A stretch of DNA of 61,718 nt, the filler included, from Globobulimina sp. (lineage: Eukaryota), in NCBI GenBank assembly GCA_003354225.1. It is 24 parts of 24 records of this genome, joined end to end, with 100 filler letters (N's around TTAATTAATTAA, not from the genome) between each part and the next. Parts side by side here need not be neighbours in the genome. Positions count along the whole stretch, not along the records: positions 30,921 to 33,396 come from PIVH01006462.1; 23 more parts are not named here. One strand, given 5' to 3'. The position numbers and the translations under genes were made by a program. This document shows, piece by piece, positions 15,977 to 58,988 of this stretch (the stretch's first letter is position 1; every line of letters starts with the position of its first letter). Under the pieces are notes generated by a model that searched no databases, had not been told where the DNA came from, and saw nothing but the letters and a program-made list of their open reading frames with translations.

Positions 15977-16267
15977 TCAATCCTCCCTGGTTTCGTTTAT
16001 TTGTATTTTTTCTTCCATTAATTCTAATGCATTATAACCGTTGTGGGTTAGATAATTGATACCAGCCAGAATTATATCAACACATTCTATTGCAGCTTTT
16101 TTGTTGAATTTATCATCAATAACTTTAGTTTTTAAAGTGGTTATTTCGGCTTGCATTTCGCAGAATTCCTCCACTATCTTTTTGTTGAAATCTGAGTGGG
16201 TAGTTTGAGGGGTAATTAAACCCCTCTTTACTATTGAATCGTAGTTGCGTTTTATTAAATTGTCCAT
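15977..16267 (-). CDS. MazG-like / all-alpha NTP pyrophosphohydrolase (phage type)
   Basis: KIVEEFCEM ... AIECVDII ... MEEKIQINETRED fits the EExxE..ExxD signature; start overlaps the upstream stop (TGATG). Confidence 0.65.
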   Translation of the reverse strand: MDNLIKRNYDSIVKRGLITPQTTHSDFNKKIVEEFCEMQAEITTLKTKVIDDKFNKKAAIECVDIILAGINYLTHNGYNALELMEEKIQINETRED

Positions 16268-17940
16268 CAGAATAAATTTAATTGTTTTTCTTTTTCAACA
16301 ACCCTCTTTATATTCTTAGATGCAGTATCAAAATAAGATTCCTTCAACTCAACACCACAACCAAACCTATTTAATTTAACAGCCTCATAAACCTCTGATC
16401 CTATTCCAAGGAAAGGAGTAAAAACAACGTCTCTTTGATTTGTCCAGAACTGGATAGCTCTCCTAATTACAGTCAATTGTAATGGTGCAATGTGCTTTTC
16501 ATCTTTTATCTCTGTTGATTCACGGTTGTTTAATACGTCAGTCCTTCTAATGTCAAACCAGCTACCAGTTAACCAATTAGGGTCTAAATCCCATTTAGAT
16601 TCATCAGTAACATCTACCCCGTTCATTTCATAATAATACTTAACAAGTTCGATTAATTCAGTTTTAGGTATTTTTTCACCCCAAACAGGACTTGCCCAAC
16701 GTTGCCAAGTATCTAAAGGGAAATTATCAAATGTTTTATTTGTAACAGGAATATAAGCTTCTGTTTGCCTAAAATCTTCTAAACCGTCCCATTTCTTAAA
16801 TATTGTTATGTATTCCGGAAGCCCAACTCCGCTAAATCTTGAATCTTTCCTTAATTGCTTATAAAGTAATCTTTGAGTTTTAGTTCTCTGCATTTCAAGT
16901 ACAGGATCAGTCCAAATAGTTATTTTAGAATGATATCTAAATCCTGCCTTTTCCATTGCTCTATGATAATCTCCAGTAAAATCATACAAACCAGTGTAAC
17001 CGCTCGAACCTTTGTAAACAGCTAAATCTTTCGAATGAACGCAAACAATACCGCCAATTTTCATTTTATTGAATAATTTATTTAATAAAAATTGGTTTTG
17101 CTCAAAGAATTCAGCATGATTAACACAATTACCCATATCTCTATATGAATTAGAGTATGTGAAAAGCATTGAAAATGGAGGACTAAATATTGAAAAGTCA
17201 AAACTCTCATCTTTAAAACAGTCTATTTCTTTGACGGAATCACCATTAATTATATGGTAACTTTCATTTTTTACTTCTTTTTTTTCGTAATCCATAACTA
17301 AACTATATTCAGAATTAATACTTGTAACCATCTCTTTTCTCATATTTTCAAACATCTTTTGTTTGCGCTCAATTGTTAATTTAGCATTTTCCATTGTCTG
17401 AATCGAAATTAAATAAACTACTACTTTTTCTTTTCTTCCAAATCTATGCGCTCTTTTTAACGCCTGATAATAAAGTTCAAAACTAAAGTCAGGGCTTACA
17501 TGGATTTGTATATCACAGTTTTGATAATTCATTCCAAAACCTGCAATGCTTTTTTTTGTTACTAAAATTCTAAACTTATTATGAGCAAACTCAATCAAAT
17601 CCCTTTCCTTATCTTCTGGTTTATCTGACCCTCTAACCTCTCGGAATGATAATTGTAACTCTTTTAATCTTCTTTTAATATAATCAGCTTCATCATTCCT
17701 CTCTACCCAAGCTATTATTTGTTTTTCTGGATTGTTAAGAATTATTTTTATAGTTTCCTCACAACGACATACTAAAGTCCTCCTTAATTCAGGGTGTTTT
17801 TCTGTTGCTGAAACTGCAAAATCATTGAATAATTTTCCATTATCTTGTTTCTCTACATCAATAACAACGTCAATAATTTCAAGCTCTGGTAATTCATATT
17901 CTTTACCCTCATTTTCAAAGCCTAAATCGCTTGGAGAATT
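16267..17940 (-). CDS. Phage SF2 helicase C-terminal region fused to an N4/N6 DNA methyltransferase (5' truncated)
   Basis: Frame is open to the contig end (..PSDLGFE..YELPEL..EVRGSD..); helicase motifs ILVTKKSIAGFGMNYQ and YYQALKRAHRFG; MTase FSIFSPPFS, DEKHIAPLQ, VVFTPFLGIGSE, GVELKESYF. Confidence 0.88.
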   Translation of the reverse strand, partial: NSPSDLGFENEGKEYELPELEIIDVVIDVEKQDNGKLFNDFAVSATEKHPELRRTLVCRCEETIKIILNNPEKQIIAWVERNDEADYIKRRLKELQLSFREVRGSDKPEDKERDLIEFAHNKFRILVTKKSIAGFGMNYQNCDIQIHVSPDFSFELYYQALKRAHRFGRKEKVVVYLISIQTMENAKLTIERKQKMFENMRKEMVTSINSEYSLVMDYEKKEVKNESYHIINGDSVKEIDCFKDESFDFSIFSPPFSMLFTYSNSYRDMGNCVNHAEFFEQNQFLLNKLFNKMKIGGIVCVHSKDLAVYKGSSGYTGLYDFTGDYHRAMEKAGFRYHSKITIWTDPVLEMQRTKTQRLLYKQLRKDSRFSGVGLPEYITIFKKWDGLEDFRQTEAYIPVTNKTFDNFPLDTWQRWASPVWGEKIPKTELIELVKYYYEMNGVDVTDESKWDLDPNWLTGSWFDIRRTDVLNNRESTEIKDEKHIAPLQLTVIRRAIQFWTNQRDVVFTPFLGIGSEVYEAVKLNRFGCGVELKESYFDTASKNIKRVVEKEKQLNLF

Positions 17941-23019: not shown

Positions 23020-24020
23020 TATTTTTTTTGATTTTGATTGTTAAATAAGCTCATTTTGATCCACGTTGAAAGCTGTACTCAAAAAATTAAACNNNNNNNN
23101 NNNNNNNNNNNNNNNNNNNNNNNNNNNNNNNNNNNNTTAATTAATTAANNNNNNNNNNNNNNNNNNNNNNNNNNNNNNNNNNNNNNNNNNNNGAAAATGA
23201 TCAGAAAAACGATTTCCTCTGAAAATAATTCTAATATCATTTTATACCCAGAAAACAGTCAGAAAACGTTTTTCTAAGTCAGACTTTGAAAATGCTGCAG
23301 CTTTGCTTACAAGTTCTTACGAATGAAATTTCAAATCGTCACGTAACAAAAATTATCACTGTTTATTGATAAAAATCTGCTGTATTATCAACGCATTGTC
23401 CAAAATTAATGAGATGACGAAAGGTTTTTATCGATGGAAACACCACTTTTATGCGATACTTCCAATAAATGCGAGACAAAGTGATAATGACAGACCAAAA
23501 TATAAAACGACCCAACTTCCAGCAACCATTACAAATAAATTCCATCGTTCATACAAAAGAGCTAAATCAAAAAATACGAAATTAAAAATACAAGAAAAAA
23601 TACAGATGAACGAACAATATAAACACTTTGTAATGAATGGAGAATATCCAACGTCTGAACTAGACCTCGTTTTGATTACAAATAAAAATAGAGAGAAACA
23701 CTGATTTTTGCGAATGCTTCGGTGATCATCAGATATTAATACAAGCACTAGCTGAAAATAAGAATAATATTGTTGTGGCTAAACTGATCATGAATATCAT
23801 AATCAATTTTGAAATAGGGAATAATCTGCCTTGAATTGATAAAGAAATATTCACCAAGATAAGAATGGAAACGCCAATAAACATTACTGTTTTACTTTGC
23901 AGCTGCTTTGCAGATCTCGGATTTTCGCACAAACCACACATTAAATTAATTTTCGATACGTTACGTTGCATTACTTTAAATTTAAATTATGGTTTATATC
24001 ATGTACACATTTGCAATACT

Positions 24021-24911
24021 AATGATGATGACGCATGGATCAGAGACACTGGACCCACTTTCTTGGTGAATAAAGATAACAAGCTTTCCGGAATTGATTG
24101 GTTTTTTAATGCTTGGGGGGGGGTTGGAAATCTGTATAACGAACATCAACAAACATGGCAACTTGAAGGATCTTACTTTCCATGGAAATTAGATGACATG
24201 GTTGCTAGGAAGGTTCTTGAAATTGAAAGAGCGTATAGATACCGTTGCCCTTTAATATTAGAAGGAGGCGCTATTCACGTAAATGGCCAAGGAACTTTAA
24301 TTGCGATTAAACAATGCATTCAGGGTAGAAACTCAAATCTTTCTCTAAAACAAATTGAAGATATCCTGTCCAAATATTTAGGTGTTAAAAATATTCTTTG
24401 GCTAAATAGAGGCTTATATATGGAAGAAAATGATGGTCACATAGATAACATGTGTTGTTTTGCAGACTCCAAAACAATTCTATTGAATTGGTGTGATGAC
24501 AAAAACGATCCTCAAAGTGAGATATCTAATGAAGCGTATGAAATACTAATGAATGCTAAAGATATTGATGGAAGTTGTTTTAATGTTATAAAAATACCAC
24601 AGCCTCCTGCTTTATACATTACTGAAGAGGAAAATATTGGTGTAGATTCTTCCGAATATTCAATTCCAAGAATTCCCAATGATAGATTGCCCGCATCATA
24701 TATCAATTCTTACATAATGAATAATGCAGTCATTATACCTTCTTTTTCATCCGAGTTTGATAAAAGCCCAAAAGAATATGATTTAAAAGCCTACAACTTA
24801 TACAAGAAAATTTTTAAGAACAGAAAGGTAATCCAAATACCAGCCGGAGAACTTTTGTTAGGAGGTGGAGGAATACACTGTTTATTACAACAAATACCCA
24901 AGAAAAACTAA
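24021..24911 (+). CDS. aguA: Agmatine deiminase (bacterial type), N-terminal part missing
   Basis: DDAWIRDTGP, DWFFNAWGG, LEGGAIHVNGQGT, GHIDN, RLPASYIN, GGGGIHCLLQQIP (catalytic Cys). The first ~52 codons of ORF 23865 are unrelated sequence. Confidence 0.9.
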   Translation, partial: NDDDAWIRDTGPTFLVNKDNKLSGIDWFFNAWGGVGNLYNEHQQTWQLEGSYFPWKLDDMVARKVLEIERAYRYRCPLILEGGAIHVNGQGTLIAIKQCIQGRNSNLSLKQIEDILSKYLGVKNILWLNRGLYMEENDGHIDNMCCFADSKTILLNWCDDKNDPQSEISNEAYEILMNAKDIDGSCFNVIKIPQPPALYITEEENIGVDSSEYSIPRIPNDRLPASYINSYIMNNAVIIPSFSSEFDKSPKEYDLKAYNLYKKIFKNRKVIQIPAGELLLGGGGIHCLLQQIPKKN

Positions 24912-24931
24912 TTTAGTTACGGAGGATGATT

Positions 24932-25668
24932 ATGGAAAAAAAAATTGCATTAGTAACAGGGGTTTCTAGAACAAACGGAATTGGATATGCCATCTGCATG
25001 AAATTATTATCAGAGGGTTATTTTGTACACGCTACTTACAATTCAGAAAATGAATGTGAAAGTGAATTCTTAGCTAAGTATGCCGATTGTTATAAAGTGC
25101 ATAAAGTTGACTTCACTGATAGAAATATACTCAACAATTTTATTTCAGATATTAAAGATCAAACTTTTAACCTAATTGTAAATAATGCAGGTGCCTTCCC
25201 GGAAGATGAGGACTATAACAATTATGATATGTCCATATGGGATGAAGTTTTTGCTGTAAATGCCACGGCACCTTTTGCAATCAGTACTGGCCTTAAAAAC
25301 TCTATGTGTAAAAATGGAGTTATTATCAATATTGCTAGCACAGATGGATTCAAAGGTGCATTCAGTAGTATGTCTTATGCAGCAAGTAAAGCTGCATTAA
25401 TCAATATAACTCAAAGTCTCGCTATAACTTTTGGTTATGACGAAATGAAAATTAGAGTTATTGCCATCGCACCAGGCTGGGTAAAAACTGATGTAAGCAT
25501 GATCCCCGAAATTTCATGGAAGGTTGCTCCACAAATGACACCGTTGGGCCGTTTTGCTGAAACTGATGAAATTGCTGAGTTTGTAAGTTTTCTAGCATCT
25601 GATAAAGCAAAATTTATTACAGGTTCTACTCATGTAATCGATGGTGGATTTAATTGTGTGGATTATAC
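24932..25668 (+). CDS. Short-chain dehydrogenase/reductase (FabG-like), bacterial, 3' end just truncated
   Basis: ALVTGVSRTNGIG, VNNAG, SYAASKAA, IAPGWVKT, FITGSTHVIDGG; GGAGG Shine-Dalgarno at 24921-24925, 6 nt before the ATG; 20 nt after the aguA stop. Confidence 0.92.
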
Positions 25669-30130: not shown

Positions 30131-30921
30131 TTTTTGTTGCATTTTATATGTATTTTGTTTTGATTATGTCGTTGGAAAACAGAACACATTGTTTCCAGAA
30201 AACGCAAATGCAAATTACAGTCCAGAAAAGAAGAAAAAACGCAAAAAAAGAAAAGAAAGGGACAAGAAAAAAGATGGTAACATGACAATGTAAATCGGCA
30301 ATATTTAACTGTTTTTTTTTTGTTTTGTTTTTATGTATATTTATATCATGAAAATGTTATTGTACTTGTTGTGATATCTCGTGCCAATACTGTTTAGATT
30401 CACAATCTTTTAGAACGAAAAAAAAATACGATATAGCTAGATATTATATTTATTATCTACAAACACAACAAATAGCAATCAACAAAAAATTAAATATTAA
30501 ATGCATACACACTCAGCCACATGAATAAATATATTTAATTTATAGAATACCTCCATCGCAATAAAAATATCGATTCCTGCAAAAAGTTTTTGTTTTTGTG
30601 TTTATTTTGTTGAGTTAGTAAGAGAGAAAAACAAATTGTTTATCTTATATATAATAGACAAAAATACAAGAGAACACATTACATTCCACCAAAAAAAAGG
30701 TCCTAAAAATATCAGTAAATAATCTCAAAAAATCTACAAATGCAATGATTTTGCATGCAAACGTATATGATTACGGTACAAAAACATAACAAATATAAAT
30801 CAAACACAAAAAAAGGATGANNNNNNNNNNNNNNNNNNNNNNNNNNNNNNNNNNNNNNNNNNNNTTAATTAATTAANNNNNNNNNNNNNNNNNNNNNNNN
30901 NNNNNNNNNNNNNNNNNNNNT

Positions 30922-32370
30922 GCTGGACATACCATCGTAATCGATGTTGATATGGATGAACCCATCGGCACTTAGAATGGCACAAAGAATGGAAAAGCAT
31001 ATTTTGTTTGCGGTGATAAACACGCTCTGTTCACTATAAAGGACAATTTAGCAGTATTACCAGAGGGAAAACCACAATGTTTACATCCAGAAACATTAAT
31101 TAATATTATCAACAATGATAAATTGGAACAAACTATGATTCAACATATAAATATTGCAGATAATATCTTATGTTATGATTTCTCATGCAACCAATTGAGA
31201 GTTTCTACTGTAACTAAAAAGTTCAAAGTCCATTTAAAAGATACTAAAAACAGTAAATTGGTGAAATTAACACTTATTAACAAGGACGCTCAAATAATAT
31301 GTATCCAATGTACAGACAATCATTATTTTTATGAAAGCAGTCAAAACAGATATAAGATGGTGAAAGAACTCGTCATTGGGAATCAGTTAAAATGTTATAA
31401 TGAACAATTACAAATTGTAACAGATGTGTCAGTACATAATATTGAGTATATTCAACACAGTACAAATATGGTAATTGTATATGATTTACGCATTGAAAGT
31501 TATCACAGTTATTTTGCAAACTCAATTCTTTGCCATAATATGAATCCATTACCACCAATTCCATCGATATCGATATCAAAAAAGCAGAATGCATTGCCAC
31601 CAATCCCTTCATCAAACGTACAATCTGATAACAGTCAGCAAATAGATTTAGATCCAGAAACATTAAAAAAAGAATGCGAAAAGGCAGAAAGAATCAAAAT
31701 AAGTGGTACTTTTTATAGGTATCAATTGAGCGAAGATGAAAAACTGCAACAAATTCAACATCCAACCATTGTGGGCAAGGTAATGCATAAAGAATATCAA
31801 TTATTTATTGGTCTATTTCAAGCGCGGCGGTTATTGCCCTCTGATCAAAGTGGTTTAAGTGACCCTTATGTTGTCATACATTGTTATGGCAAAACCTTCA
31901 AATCAGACATCGTCAATAAACGACTAAATCCAGTTTGGCATCGCGGATATTTGCAAAATATAATATTGCCGCACCCAATCAATTATTCACCGCCTCTTTT
32001 AGTACAAGTCTGGGACTACGATGCTTCGACACTAAAAAGTGGATATCATAAAAAAGAAAATGATTTCTTAGGTTCGTGTTATATATCAACACAAGATTTA
32101 ATTGTGGAGGAATTGAATGTTATTACTCCGAAACCAAAATGGTATCCGTTATATATTAATGATAAAAAAGATACAGCCAAACAAATTAAATTACAAAGTC
32201 AAGTTTTACTAAATTTACAATTAATATCTGGACATAATCAAAATATACAATCTTTGAATAAAGCTGTTACTATTTCTCATCAACAAAATGAAGAAAACGA
32301 CAATGATGAAAAAAAAGAAGAAAAAGCGTCAGAAATAACGAAAGCAAATACATTTGGAGAAAAACTTTGA
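30922..32370 (+). CDS. CAP-Gly-like + Hint (intein-like) + ferlin-type C2 domain protein; 5' truncated; in-frame TAG at 30973
   Basis: Upstream in-frame translation: VDMDEPIGT*NGTKNGKAYFVCGDKHALF (CAP-Gly). Hint at 31078-31539. C2: LFQARRLLPSDQSGLSDPYV..LNPVW..PPLLVQVWDYD..DFLG. Confidence 0.8.
31078..31539 (+). other. Hint / bacterial-intein-like (BIL A-type-like) autoprocessing domain, 154 aa, no endonuclease
   Basis: Block A CLHPETLI; block B IQCTDNHYFY (TxxH) then VKELVIGNQL; blocks F/G VYDLRIESYHSYFANSILCHN; +1 residue is Met. Confidence 0.9.
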
Positions 32371-32388
32371 AACATTATTATCGCTCTA

Positions 32389-32904
32389 ATGTCTTCCAAA
32401 AAAAGAAAGTTAGATGCTAATGAATCAATATCACCGAAAAAACGAAAATTAAACACTAAAGAAGAAACTGATAGTTTACCTAAACGTAATTACAATATAT
32501 TATTTCAACAAGTACGTAAATCATCATTGGTAAAGAAATTACATGTTGAAGATGACATTGTTAAATTGATATCAGAATTTGGTCGTGGATATATCACTGA
32601 GTGTTGCTATTGTCAAACTGAAGAACATTTGGATGATATTTGTACTTTATTTAAGGAATTGAGTGATTGGAGACCTTGGGAAAATAAAGGTTATGATCCA
32701 GAACCAACATGTCCAAAATGCAGTTCACAGTTTGAATGCACATTCTGCCAGGAATTAATGGAAGACACATATAAATGTGAAGCATGTGGCTGTAATGTAT
32801 GCCTAAGTCGTAATTGTGAGAGTGAACACCAGGAAGAACATATGGGACAGGATTTGGGATTTACTGAATCTACACTCGAGGGTATGGCATATGAATCATA
32901 TTAA
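32389..32904 (+). CDS. Small Cys-rich hypothetical protein with basic NLS-like N-terminus
   Basis: SKKRKL..PKKRKL; CxxC pairs CCYC, CPKC, CTFC, CEAC and CNVC. Confidence 0.6.
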   Translation: MSSKKRKLDANESISPKKRKLNTKEETDSLPKRNYNILFQQVRKSSLVKKLHVEDDIVKLISEFGRGYITECCYCQTEEHLDDICTLFKELSDWRPWENKGYDPEPTCPKCSSQFECTFCQELMEDTYKCEACGCNVCLSRNCESEHQEEHMGQDLGFTESTLEGMAYESY

Positions 32905-33496
32905 ACACTGGAAAGAGGACTCATTTCCGATTATTTCTCATTTATCAAATAATTTCATAATATCTGATATCAAGTTTGTTCACCCACTGCGGATTTAGAC
33001 TCAGACAACCGAAAACACACAACCATGATTGTCAAAGTAGCCCAGCAAATTCTGTAACTTCTAACTCGTTTCTGAATCATTGTTGCACATTCTTCATCAA
33101 AACACATTCCTGTACAACATCCACGATTCGTTTCATCTCAATCTATCCAAACCGCCAAGATAGACCCATCAAATTACACAAAACAAATCGGAATATTCTC
33201 CAGGAATCTATCTCTTTCTTTTCCTCCTTTTTCCTTCCGGCAAACCATGCATTATCGTCAATAATTTTTAATAAATAAATAAAAATAAATGGGTAATTAT
33301 CTATATCACTGTGGTTTTGCAATAAAATTAAGTGTGCATTTCCATTCTTATTTAAACATTCATTCCAATAAATATTGCATTTTTCAGTGTTACTTGNNNN
33401 NNNNNNNNNNNNNNNNNNNNNNNNNNNNNNNNNNNNNNNNTTAATTAATTAANNNNNNNNNNNNNNNNNNNNNNNNNNNNNNNNNNNNNNNNNNNN

Positions 33497-49697: not shown

Positions 49698-51422
49698 TTA
49701 TTCTTCTTTAACCACTTTAATATCTTCAACCTCATTCCCATCCTTATCCTCATCCCCATCCTCATTGCAATTGCTTTGTCCTTTACCATGCTTATCTTTG
49801 TCGTGTTTATCTTTCTGTTTCACGTACTTTTTCACCAATTTCTCAATATACATTTGATTCCGATTCGATTCTAAAAACATTGTCGCAGTCTCGACATTAT
49901 ATTTACTCTTCTTTTCTTTATATCGATCCTGTACTCTCTGACTGCATTTCTTTACCGTTGCTTTATATTTCTTTGATTCTGATAAATATTTTTCTTTATA
50001 CTTCCGGAACTCAATAGACACCGCATCGAATATCCTCATCATTGCCTTTGCCTCTCTCTGTTTCCGTTTCTTTTCCTTTCGCTCTCTCTCTTTCTCTCTC
50101 TCTCTCTGTCTCCGTTGCCGTTTTTCCCTCTCTCTCTTCTCGCGCTTCTTCTTCCCGCTCGAACTCGAACGCGCTCTCCGATGCTTCTTCGCTTTCCTCT
50201 CTTTCTGCTGCACCACGCCCACAATCAAACATTCATTCTCTACGTTGCTCGCATTGCTAACTAACGGCGAGTTGAATGGCGATATATCGGGTGGCGCAAT
50301 CACCGATTTCTTCTCCTTAATGTGCGTCGACTCTGTCTCTACGGCAATGACCGATTCTTTTTCAACTTTACTTCCCGCCATTTCTTCCGTACTTTGCTGC
50401 TTTTTCGCCGAATTGCGGTGCTCTGTACACGTGTTATTTGCGTGCTGCTCATACTGCGGCTTGTCAGGAGTGACATTATTGAGAGTTTTGGAGCCATTCA
50501 ATGCTTTATCAGTACCAATATGATCAGTGCTCGTCGCAATAGCTGCTTGCGCACCATTTACAAACATTGGGTGACGGGACGGCAGTAATGGTGCTAGAAA
50601 AGGATAAAAATATCAATAATGTTCACTCTCTGCAGGGTATATATATAACAACAAACCTCCGTTTATATACGGCGCAAAGTGTGCTATATGGTGAGGCGAA
50701 GGGTGCGTGGCATGGGGATGAGGCGCAGTGTACGGCGCTATGAACGATGTGGGATACGCATGAGGCATATACGGTGGTGGCGGTCCATGCGGATAGGCCC
50801 CGACGGGATGACCAAACGAGACACCATGGCCATGGCCATGCGCATTGCGCGTCTCGTACCGGTCGTATCTGTACGGTCCATATTGCTGCGCTTTCTTCAA
50901 TTGCTCCTATAATACGGCGCAAATTAAACAAACGCACTGGGAAATAGAAGGGAGACAACATACGAGTTCATGGAACAGGTCGTCCGGATACCGTTTGCTC
51001 TCAAGCTTCAATGTCCAGTTTTTGTTGCTTTCGACTTGATTGAGTTCAATGGTACGGTAATCCTCACACAATTTCGCGATCTGATTAATATGCTTCCGAT
51101 CGTGGATAAAGATCTGTGTGATGTCGTAATAATTGTTCTCTTTCCTTATCCCATTGATAGTGCACTCCGTCCTTTGTTTGAACTGCATAAAACCGATAAT
51201 TTGGCCGCTTTTGAAGTCCTCATACAAAATGAATTTAACTTCGTCGTCTTGGATCCATAGACCAGTCAAGTTATCGTTGTCTCGCTCTCGCTCTCTCTCC
51301 CTCTCCTCTCTGTATTTGTATTTATAACTCCTCTCTCGATCCCGATGTCTGCGATTCTCTCTCTCCCGTTCATAAGAAGAGCTATATCTCACTTTCTGCG
51401 CTGATTTGTTAGAACCGCGATC
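49698..51422 (-). CDS. RE/RS-, Pro/His- and Lys-rich hypothetical protein; introns 50907-50963 and 50594-50656
   Basis: Two GT-AG introns (57 and 63 nt) join ORFs 50907-51392, 50613-50900 and 49698-50567 in frame. Confidence 0.7.
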
Positions 51423-51689
51423 NNNNNNNNNNNNNNNNNNNNNNNNNNNNNNNNNNNNNNNNNNNNTTAATTAATTAANNNNNNNNNNNNNNNNNNNNNN
51501 NNNNNNNNNNNNNNNNNNNNNNTGTTATTTCTTATTGTACACATTCTAAATATATACACATAGAAATGTACGTACAGTTAACAATAATACCCATTTAGAA
51601 CAATTTTGTGCATATTATTTTAGAATGTGGACAATAAGAGATGCATGAACCACTGTACACGAACACGAATGTATACTCATTTCAGGGCG

Positions 51690-56804: not shown

Positions 56805-58988
56805 TTAAATTCTTTGTAATATCAGACAATGTGTTAAAACGTGTTTATACGATCTATCCGTTTCTTTGCTAACCGATTCAACATCAATCTCTTCATTTAA
56901 TTTCCAATTTATTCTGTTATTATTACTATTTGTTGATAATAACAATATTTTTAGTGCATTTCGAGTGTATATTGCTTTATTCTCTTTATCATATTTGCCA
57001 CCAATCCAATTTACTTTTGCTGTATGTTTTTGGTTCCATGAATATTTATCACATAAAACAAACGTTGCTCCGATATTCGTCCTTTCATGGATCATATTCA
57101 AAAATAACAATGGATTCGATAAATGATGAATTATATTTGATGCAATCACTAAATCAAATCCATTCAATTTTTTATCCATATTTTGTGCATCATTTTGTAT
57201 AAAATATACTTTTTTCATTAACTCATCATTGTAACATAATTCGTCTGCTGTTACTTTATAATGTTTCTTTATATCACCCTCTTGTTTTAAATCCCATTCT
57301 AAAAATTTATTCTCCTGCATTCTGTAACCAACACCAATTAAACGAGCAGTAACGTCTAAGCCAACAACATTATCAAATTCTTTTGCTAATTCAAATGCTG
57401 TTCGGCCGGGACCACATCCAACATCCATAGCTTTCCTTCTCATAGATTTATTGCTATATTCCATAGCAATTTCAGCTATTCGTTTGGGGTAATTTTCAAT
57501 TCCGAAATATGCTTCATCCCAAAAATGAAAATGCGACAAAACATTGACAAAACATTGGCTGTTATGATCAATATCTGCCAATGAATCTAAATACGTCAAA
57601 TCCCGCTCAGATTCAACATACCGAATGCCCTAAAAATGCAACCAAAAAAACAAAAAAAGTATACCATATATAATATATCTGACACTTAACAGCAAACTGA
57701 AAAAAATGACGTCTAAATTGATACCGCGATAACCGCATTGCTTGATTCCCTGTGGAGACCCACGAACCACCTTTAATGATATTATGGTGCGGACCAAAAC
57801 ATGGCGCAGTAAAATCATCATACAATGGATGCACTTCAAAATCAGCAAATGGATGTTGTGGCGTCAACGTATGCTGCCAAACATTGCCAATAATATCATA
57901 AAAACCGGTGGACCCAAATTCAAACATATCAACGGGGCATTCAGATGCAAAATATTCTAAATTTGTGTTCCCCGGAGCCATATCCCAATCCATCACATCA
58001 ATATCTCCAAATTCACCCAATTGGCGCAACACATGCCATTCATCCTCAGTTAATAAACGGATTGATTTATTTAATTTGCTTGACTTCCAAGCAGTGAATG
58101 CTAGACCTTCCAAATGGTTGGTAATCACCGGCCAGTCCCATGGCAATTCAATTTCATTTAACATATTCCTCAGATACCATTTTCCCTCTTTTTTGAGCCA
58201 GAATTTTGGTGCGATTGTTTTTGTCGACTGTACCCATTGCCAGCCTTCCTCGGACCAATATTTTCTATCTAAATATCCACCATCTACGACAAATTCATAA
58301 TATTCTTCGTTGGATACTAAATAACGGGACGCCTTGAAATCCATTACATCGATACCCATTTCACCAAATTCATTATCCCATCCATACACGGACAGATTAC
58401 GAGAAAAATCGTTAATTCTTCGACCATAAGATACATGTTTGCCTTTTTATGAATAAACAGTTATGTTTGCAAAACGGAAAAAAGTGTAATACCTTTAACT
58501 GGCACCAATCCATTGGTGGGAGCACGAGCAGAAGTTGCTAAGTCACCAAATATACCAACTTTACATATATTATCCCAAACAGCGGATATATTCTCAACAA
58601 ATACAGAAATTGGTAATTGTCGAAACAAGACAGAAGAGGTTTCAATATGAATTCGTTCATGTTCGATGCCCATCAAAATTGTATAAAAGATAGAATTCCA
58701 TTTAATGGGTAAGGATAAAGTCGAGGTATCAATGATATTTAATACAATCTCTCTGATTTCTGCTCTATATTTAAATATATGAGCTGGAGGAGGCCAATCG
58801 TCTCTATCTTGCAATTTGTCGTCCCAGCTCATCTCATCCACTCCCACAGCAAATAGTGATTCAAAATCACCATTATGTGGCTCACTGATTGCACCCGACA
58901 CTCTGAGTTTATTCACGTAGAAAGCAGCCGAATGAGCTGCATACCAACATACTGGATGTCGCAATGGATCTGCTCTATTCCAAAAGTA
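56805..58988 (-). CDS. ovoA: Ovothiol biosynthesis enzyme OvoA (DinB-like + FGE-sulfatase-like + SAM methyltransferase); introns 58443-58492 and 57630-57690; 5' exons missing
   Basis: DPLRHPVCWY..H..FYVNKL, GVDEMSWDD, EHERIHIET (Fe ligands), YGWDNEFG, spliced RRHFFQFAGIRYVES, DVGCGPGR. Confidence 0.95.

Follow-up and report, generated by a model that had tools for sequence, protein, structure and literature searches.

Three families of Hint domain, Hog, Vint and the inteins, are described from eukaryotes in PMC2362128, where bacterial intein-like (BIL) domains are treated as primarily bacterial and Vint domains as retaining mainly motifs A and B. The A-type BILs, for which PMC7765530 (section 3) and PMC2362128 summarise the work of Amitai et al. 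(2003) and Dassa et al. (2004), share a conserved C-terminal His-Asn and undergo cleavage at their ends (PMC7765530, section 3). BIL2, from a eukaryotic BUBL locus, conjugates its N-flanking ubiquitin-like domain to substrates via protein splicing, through a lysine isopeptide bond made independently of ATP (PMC8616854, section 2.4). Here we describe a Hint domain in a 61,718-base stretch of DNA (the window) taken from the Globobulimina sp. assembly GCA_003354225.1, on the contig that occupies positions 30921-33396. We think it rather likely that this contig carries part of a eukaryotic multidomain gene, in which a CAP-Gly array is followed by a BIL-type Hint domain without endonuclease, a disordered linker and a ferlin-like C2 domain, and whose product is predicted to process itself.

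To our knowledge, BIL-type Hint domains are bacterial, the sole eukaryotic exception being the ciliate BUBL loci that conjugate ubiquitin-like domains without ATP. The Hint family, its chemistry and this eukaryotic BIL precedent are known; the union of a CAP-Gly array, a BIL-type Hint domain and a ferlin-like C2 domain in a gene of eukaryotic type is new. The initial annotation of this DNA did not recognise the architecture, and our searches have likewise found no match for it. A literature search returned no work combining CAP-Gly with intein-like or Hint domains (the additional files of PMC2362128 might list further eukaryotic architectures) and none on bdelloid Hint domains, and the literature joining inteins with ferlins concerned, among the matches listed, gene therapy or genome editing only. 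Protein searches and scans of metagenome, genome and viral contigs gave no full-length CAP-Gly-Hint-C2 relative: 0 of 51 pattern matches in metagenome contigs were related, 0 of 19 in genome contigs, and in viral contigs 0 of 2 for the Hint-C2 open reading frame (ORF) and 0 of 2 for P0005, the CAP-Gly-Hint protein discussed below. A metagenome scan with a two-row alignment yielded a single locus, L001, which matches query residues 142-188 only.

Domains, junctions and reading frame

The domains of this gene and their order can be read directly from the translation. The 154-residue Hint domain has no endonuclease insert, and its catalytic motifs are intact: Cys1 (31078-31080), the block-B TDNH (31312-31323), the block-F VYDL (31477-31488) and the terminal His-Asn (31534-31539), after which Met stands at +1. 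An HMMER scan of 1.84 billion cluster representatives with the Hint region finds 139 proteins at E <= 1e-3 and 2 at E <= 1e-10, and close relatives make up 2 of the 139 (45% identity). Of nine Hint matches submitted to Pfam, seven exceed the cut-off in one Hint family or more; the fragments P0004 and P0005 are the exceptions, and P0010 lies just under all cut-offs. A profile built from 24 short matches, with the window row left out, scores the ORF at 125.7 bits compared with at most 3.6 bits in 200 shuffles, although this profile is not independent of the query (its rows were picked as matches to this Hint, the close relative P0004 included). In alignment A1, whose invariant or near-invariant columns in first-row numbering are T83, H86, H157 and N158 plus Cys1, the window Hint retains Cys1, the Thr and His of block B, which hardly vary, the His and Phe of block G, and the His-Asn, which is invariant. 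The A1 profile, run against the 623 six-frame ORFs of the window, detects the Hint-C2 ORF and no paralogue. P0004, the closest relative of the C-terminal half, reads His-Asn-Met-Asn as the window does, so that the +1 Met is not peculiar to the window copy. At -1, the window Hint has Gln and P0005 has Arg.

AlphaFold2, run on A1, predicts the horseshoe-like, all-beta Hint fold for this domain, and the model has a mean predicted local distance difference test score (pLDDT) of 93.6 and a predicted template modelling score of 0.88. Searched against the PDB with Foldseek, this model has 68 matches at E <= 0.001, and all matches listed are BIL, intein or Hedgehog Hint folds. The top four are chains from the Tetrahymena thermophila BUBL1 locus (6Y75 and 6TMM; E 1.9e-11 to 2.3e-10, template modelling scores 0.76-0.83), which Table 1 and section 2.4 of PMC8616854 identify as BIL2. 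Below them come the NrdJ-1 and DnaB mini-inteins and then a Clostridium thermocellum BIL (ninth, E 1e-8), with Hedgehog in 34th and 36th place (E 2e-6 to 4e-6). A PDB search by sequence also has the BIL2 chains among its best matches, together with helicase and CDC21 inteins. ESM Atlas comparisons of ORF residues 1-200 point to phage and bacterial Hint clusters (0.81-0.86) and one Rotifera Hint cluster (0.81), values all below 0.9 that we treat as leads only.

Ahead of Cys1 lies the C-terminal half of a CAP-Gly domain. With an in-frame TAG read as X, the N-terminal 39 residues score just under the 26.5-bit cut-off of the Pfam CAP_GLY model (PF01302), because only positions 29-61 of its 65 lie on the contig. 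The CAP-Gly motif GKNDG binds EEY/F tails; it is absent here, the window reading G-T-stop-N-G where P0005 reads GNCNG, GTNNG and GKHNG. P0005 is a 420-residue protein from another collection, in which four CAP-Gly domains (5.3e-75) are followed directly by the same Hint start. BLASTP aligns the ORF with it at 44% identity over 142 residues (E 2e-32), collinearly from the fourth CAP-Gly domain past Cys1 and as far as block B; there, still within the Hint, P0005 breaks off with its own contig. As P0005 is an independent record, the CAP-Gly-Hint junction is a conserved architecture and no accident of assembly.

On the other side of the Hint domain, a Pro-rich linker leads into a C2 domain. Pfam C2 (PF00168) matches ORF residues 275-392 at 6.6e-14 and 52.4 bits (cut-off 22), over profile positions 2-104 of 104. 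The best of 51 PDB sequences matched are myoferlin (6.5e-23), dysferlin (1.2e-17) and otoferlin (7.3e-14), then synaptotagmin-1 (3.9e-11), and the best-matching stretch in every ferlin is the C2 domain around chain residues 800-1300. Acidic loop residues appear in the myoferlin alignment as S-D-Q...S-D-P, W-D-Y-D and N-D-F, at loop positions that we take to be the Ca2+ ligands of C2 domains. The ferlin-led matches and the acidic loops make "ferlin-type C2" a fair label, and these residues suggest that the domain probably binds Ca2+. Longer homologues of the ORF (26 of 4324 candidates) cover at most 33% of the query, in the C2 part only, and 24 of the 26 carry the ferlin Pfam set; the ESM Atlas relates the whole ORF to a dysferlin cluster at 0.76, which is again below 0.9 and a lead only. 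A search for near relatives gave 2 matches among 4387 candidates, both in the C2 part and both lacking Hint and CAP-Gly domains: P0002, of 753 residues with two C2 domains (51% identity to the window C2 part), and P0003, of 284 residues (44% identity), from a cluster of 4 members of that length.

Most of what the initial annotation had claimed for these domains is borne out. The compact 154-residue Hint with Cys1, TDNH, VYDL, His-Asn and +1 Met lies where it had been placed; its in-frame position between a CAP-Gly-like sequence and a Pro-rich linker with C2 agrees with the 464-codon ORF, the P0005 homology and the Pfam C2 match; no homing endonuclease is inserted; and the ferlin-type C2 with Asp residues of Ca-ligand type is upheld by the myoferlin, dysferlin and otoferlin matches and the acidic loops. 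Of the profile searches that it had proposed, C2 clears its Pfam cut-off, PT-HINT does not, and CAP_GLY, with half of the domain on the contig, falls just short; Intein_splicing is under its cut-off as well.

An assembler might have joined Hint and C2 parts from different loci. Coverage is low (about 4.5x), contigs conflict around 32270-32374, there is a depth step between the contig halves, and the assembly is mixed, with a bacteria-like contig in the window. Such a chimera is nevertheless very improbable in our view, since the Hint-C2 junction is bridged by a 493-nucleotide Logan contig from run X1, the product of a second assembler, which matches 31289-31781 with 0 differences and spans blocks B-G, the His-Asn-Met junction, the linker and the first 28 residues of C2-family homology. 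The reading frame is continuous, the conflicts sit 3' of the C2 domain and not at the Hint, and the CAP-Gly-Hint junction is independently confirmed by P0005. Run X1 holds 0.81 of the window contig's sampled words and is probably its source data set; runs X2-X4 reach parts of the contig only, and the parts left uncovered carry no weight as evidence.

Downstream of the TAG the plus-strand frame is open for 464 codons (30976-32370, with TGA at 32368-32370) in DNA of about 30% guanine plus cytosine (GC), and the longest ORF in 300 shuffles of the contig has 159 codons. Upstream of the TAG, 17 in-frame codons run to the first base of the contig (30921), and the gene is therefore cut at its 5' end. 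An intron or frameshift as the cause of the TAG is ruled out by the P0005 alignment, which is collinear and gap-free through this codon. A variant genetic code is ruled out as well: the long ORFs of the window end in TAA (17), TGA (12) and TAG (4), the 464 codons contain neither TAA nor TAG, and same-frame ORF pairs in the window, checked for a reassigned stop, show no pattern. Two variant contigs from the same sample (runs X3/X4), covering 30921-31066 with 11 differences and 30921-31041 with 4, have A>C at 30974 and so read TCG (Ser), which makes the TAG a feature of one copy or an error at the end of a low-coverage contig. Run X1, the probable source, has no contig over 30973-30975.

At the 3' end the ORF runs into an A-rich stretch that many unrelated contigs match. 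X1 contigs diverge from the window sequence after 32270, 32319 and 32337, another X1 contig differs before 32374, and the X1 continuation past 32337 stays open in frame across the 30 bases shown. Read depth is about 4.6 across the Hint-C2 part and 8.5-13 across the next ORF. Given the contig conflict and the depth step, a mis-join may lie behind both the early stop and the 18 bases that separate it from the next ORF. Of the two caveats raised at the outset, the TAG and the early end of the ORF, both stand, the TAG for this copy only and the ORF end perhaps as a mis-join; the continuity for which confirmation had been sought is seen at the CAP-Gly-Hint junction in P0005 and at the Hint-C2 junction in the X1 contig, and is uncertain among the conflicting contigs around 32270-32374. 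The initial annotation had not mentioned that the contig end at 30921 cuts the ORF, that the TAG falls inside a GKNDG-like motif, or that the 3' end is uncertain.

Several observations weigh against reading the contig as part of a self-processing multidomain gene. Because of the TAG in the CAP-Gly domain, the copy as assembled is unable to encode the full protein, and the ORF ends after one C2 domain where P0002 goes on to a second, at a point where low-complexity repeat, contig conflict and depth step coincide. The Hint-C2 junction is known only from this contig and run X1, the nearest C2 relatives are Hint-less, and P0005 stops within the Hint. Both Pfam Hint models score under their cut-offs (PT-HINT 3.2e-4 and 21.4 bits, cut-off 27.7; Intein_splicing 1e-3 and 19.4 bits, cut-off 35.8). 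In the alignment P0004 is without the T..H of block B, and it terminates 33 residues past its His-Asn-Met, which hints at decay of the family. The AlphaFold model of the whole ORF gives the C2 part a low pLDDT (35-58); this model (mean pLDDT 58.3) comes from a shallow alignment, is confident for the Hint alone and is uninformative on domain packing. Finally, a FastTree tree of 108 Hint domains puts the window Hint in a group without a star (support 87) made up mostly of inteins starting with Cys-Leu and of BILs, and thus neither with the BUBL BILs nor in any well-supported clade. As the tree does not decide the matter, we call the domain BIL-like by its features.

Part of this would be expected from a decaying gene, in which a rearrangement has fused a CAP-Gly-Hint gene with the beginning of a gene for several C2 domains, the window copy being unexpressed and its Hint motifs not yet eroded. 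We regard such a pseudogene as unlikely, if by no means negligible. It would account for the in-frame TAG, for the truncation of the ORF after its first C2 domain relative to P0002, for the missing block B and early end of P0004, and for the tiny size of the family, with its two close matches; it sits badly with 464 codons open past the TAG in such GC-poor DNA, with the retention of every catalytic residue, and with the sense codon TCG in place of the TAG in same-sample variant contigs. Single-C2 proteins of the P0003 type exist, so that an ORF end after one C2 domain is not abnormal.

Predicted processing and probable origin of the architecture

In the self-processing gene that we favour, autoprocessing or thioester transfer is plausible, as predicted from the intact catalytic residues and the structural match to BIL2; the chemical steps and the biological role given here are ones that we infer. 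Cys1 would perform an N-S acyl shift at the Gln(-1)-Cys1 bond, aided by block-B Thr79 and His82, to give a thioester bearing the CAP-Gly part. Asn154 would then cyclise with the aid of His153 and the block-F Asp, cutting the Asn-Met bond and releasing the linker-C2 part. Met is unable to serve as a +1 nucleophile, so canonical splicing is excluded. Hydrolysis of the thioester would leave three pieces. Alternatively an amine would attack it, which could be the freshly exposed N-terminus of the C2 part, by the route proposed for A-type BILs, or a lysine, as reported for BUBL BIL2. In sum, a microtubule-end-binding module would be detached from, or rejoined to, a membrane-binding module after translation.

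A bolder form of this idea, about which we are doubtful, makes the BIL-type Hint an ATP-independent conjugation device beyond ubiquitin, which would move the CAP-Gly array onto the C2 N-terminus, a protein lysine, or an amino lipid (phosphatidylethanolamine) near the Ca2+-bound C2 domain. If that were true, microtubule-end binders would be covalently anchored to membranes or partners. The Hint might instead be kept as a non-catalytic structural or binding module, with the intact protein tethering microtubule ends to membranes, a role compatible with a +1 Met that excludes standard splicing, with a -1 residue that varies between the window and P0005, and with processing that is predicted only. 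Inactive Hint-like domains usually lose catalytic residues, whereas this one has kept Cys1, T..H, the block-F Asp and His-Asn alike, and we hold this alternative to be improbable.

The positions at which the similarities start and stop suggest how the architecture probably arose, namely by fusion onto the start codon of a C2 gene. Similarity of the window C2 part to P0002 and P0003 begins at an ISG[ST]F motif, which lies 53 residues past the +1 Met in the window and 52 past the start Met in P0003, and many Hint matches end 1-4 residues past their His-Asn. On this view a CAP-Gly-Hint gene that ended at or just past the His-Asn would have been joined to the start codon of a C2 gene next to it, whose initiator Met would have become the +1 residue.

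If catalytically active, a Hint domain between cytoskeletal and membrane modules would broaden the eukaryotic use of protein-splicing chemistry, and mechanistic work would gain a compact natural Hint that has neither an endonuclease nor a nucleophile at +1. The gene may also exemplify cleanly how such architectures come about, a Hint-terminated gene being fused to the start codon of its neighbour. Its value is limited by its being known from one truncated, low-coverage contig and two fragmentary relatives.

The contig and its surroundings

The window is made up of 24 contigs of about 2.47 kb, with sizes slowly decreasing along the chain. Its 46 runs of N, each of exactly 44 N, are paired around TTAATTAATTAA to form 23 linkers (N44-TTAATTAATTAA-N44). 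These linkers join separate contigs, and features that span one are therefore no true neighbours. Table 1 gives the features of the contig that carries the Hint-C2 ORF. The 171-residue ORF that follows on this contig has no Pfam family and no homologue that we could find, and it differs from run X2, which belongs to another study, at 2 positions in 544 nucleotides. It is probably a separate gene, and its adjacency to the Hint-C2 ORF is uncertain.

Table 1. Features of the contig with the Hint-C2 ORF, in window coordinates
Feature	Position	Strand	Evidence or remark
Contig with Hint ORF	30921..33396	.	N44-TTAATTAATTAA-N44 linker at either side
CAP-Gly domain, C-terminal half	30940..31038	+	CAP_GLY 7.7e-6, 26.2 bits; P0005 homology
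In-frame TAG in GKNDG-like CAP-Gly motif	30973..30975	+	opposite Cys codon position of P0005, gap-free alignment
Hint (intein-like, BIL-type) domain, 154 residues	31078..31539	+	motifs, HMMER, profile, AlphaFold, Foldseek
+1 residue Met, no splicing nucleophile	31540..31542	+	translation
Pro-rich low-complexity linker, predicted disordered	31540..31698	+	pLDDT 22-35, ORF residues 191-270
C2 lead-in common to Hint-less P0002/P0003, from ISG[ST]F motif	31699..31797	+	sequences compared by eye
C2 domain, ferlin-like, acidic loop residues	31798..32151	+	Pfam C2, PDB matches
Lys/Glu/Asn-rich tail and TGA stop	32152..32370	+	includes A-rich low-complexity stretch 32283-32325
Next ORF, 171 residues, two KKRKL-like basic clusters (N-terminus like a nuclear localization signal), Cys-rich	32389..32904	+	same frame as Hint-C2 ORF, the TGA being the only stop between them

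To judge by their genes, the contigs of the window derive from more than one organism, and the assembly appears to be a mixture of a low-GC bacterium and a eukaryote. On the contig at 23193-25668, a Porphyromonas-type arginine deiminase gene precedes a short-chain dehydrogenase gene, whose ATG comes after GGAGG and a short spacer; the arginine/agmatine deiminase ORF and the dehydrogenase (23835-25668) thus have a bacterial layout. Eukaryotic genes occupy long unbroken ORFs on other contigs and include a RIO1 kinase, a Sec7-PH-FYVE protein, a GRIP-domain coiled-coil protein, RanBP1, a zf-MYND protein and a sedolisin. With contigs of mixed origin, conclusions about the organism rest solely on the contig at 30921-33396, and a eukaryotic origin of the Hint gene, put forward from the sequence, is supported by the types of flanking domain and not by taxonomic placement.

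Other contigs have features of their own. An 824-codon ORF spans the entire contig at 33498-35970 and has no Pfam match at E <= 0.01; visual inspection of its C-terminal third shows motifs like those of RNase H and Cys/His knuckles, reminiscent of non-LTR retrotransposons. On the minus strand, a helicase C-terminal domain and an N6/N4 DNA methylase domain share one ORF at 16267-17940, truncated at the contig end, and an FGE-sulfatase-like ORF and a methyltransferase ORF at 56805-58446 are adjacent and overlap slightly, a pair that may be a single gene split by a short intron or frameshift. Also on the minus strand, at 49698-51470 on the most GC-rich contig of the window, same-frame ORFs of 187, 97 and 304 codons follow one another with just a TAG and a TGA between them. 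The longest of the three has no Pfam match, and the set may represent a pseudogene or have arisen by chance from base composition.

Comparison with described Hint and C2 systems

Hint domains that lack a nucleophile at +1 are common among the relatives of the window domain. In 137 proteins, 194 matches reach the C-terminal block and 179 of these end in His-Asn; the +1 residue of the 179 is Cys, Ser or Thr in 70 and another residue in 109 (K 62, A 8, G 7, M 6, I 6, others). Four of the six cases with Met are ubiquitin-BIL junctions of BUBL-type proteins, including the T. thermophila polyubiquitin/ADP-ribosyltransferase P0090.

As a canonical intein, the window Hint fails on its +1 Met, and no conserved host protein is interrupted at the site. 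A canonical mobile mini-intein that had recently invaded a host gene and lost its +1 nucleophile could explain the loose place in the tree among mostly canonical inteins starting with Cys-Leu (the unstarred group of support 87) and the sequence matches to helicase and CDC21 inteins. We give this explanation very little credence: P0004 has the +1 Met in common, there is no endonuclease, and the Hint lies between unrelated domains and not within a motif that a host protein conserves. P0002 and P0003, the homologues of the C-flank, start close to the junction and have neither a CAP-Gly part nor another N-flank counterpart, the relatives of each flank lack the other flank, and no intein-free homologue with contiguous CAP-Gly and C2 was found. 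Compared with the mini-inteins Ssp DnaB, NrdJ-1 and Pho CDC21-1, the window Hint is alike in blocks A, B, F and G and in fold, and differs in its +1 Met, in its position outside a conserved host motif and in that no intein-free host allele was found.

Hog domains end in a sterol- or adduct-recognition region, without His-Asn. A Hog-type Hint is ruled out here by the full blocks F and G, the terminal His-Asn and the Pro-rich linker that follows the Hint. With Hog and Vint domains the window domain has in common the Hint fold, eukaryotic hosts and variable N-terminal partners, and it differs from them in its full F and G blocks. Among ferlins, it is the C2 domains of myoferlin, dysferlin and otoferlin that the C2 part of the ORF matches best; the ORF is itself ruled out as a ferlin, since it carries just one C2 domain and lacks FerI, FerA and DysF domains as well as a C-terminal membrane anchor (its 3' end being uncertain).

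The A-type BILs share with the window Hint a His-Asn C-terminus, the lack of Cys, Ser or Thr at +1, the lack of an endonuclease, and variable, unrelated neighbouring domains. By its sequence the window domain fits this pattern, as the initial annotation had held in setting it apart from Hog domains and canonical inteins. It departs from the A-type BILs in that its flanks are of eukaryotic type and that PT-HINT, the nearest Pfam model, stays under its cut-off.

Proteins P0006, P0046 and P0179 in the transcriptome of Nonionella stella, a foraminifer, consist of ubiquitin and BIL domains in series, with His-Asn-(Ser/Ala)-Met-Gln-Ile-Phe where they join, and are, by their sequence features, BUBL-type loci outside ciliates. 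The BILs of BUBL loci have ubiquitin-like flanks and a ubiquitin-like C-terminus before Cys1, where the window Hint has a CAP-Gly domain, a linker-C2 part and Gln at -1. Pfam finds no ubiquitin family on the Hint-C2 ORF, and the BUBL-like matches P0006 and P0011 carry it. Sequence identity to BUBL BIL2 (6Y75, 6TMM) is only about 20%; the two are alike in being eukaryotic, about 150 residues long and free of an endonuclease, in beginning with Cys1 and ending in His-Asn, and in that a Met at +1 is known from BUBL-type proteins as well.

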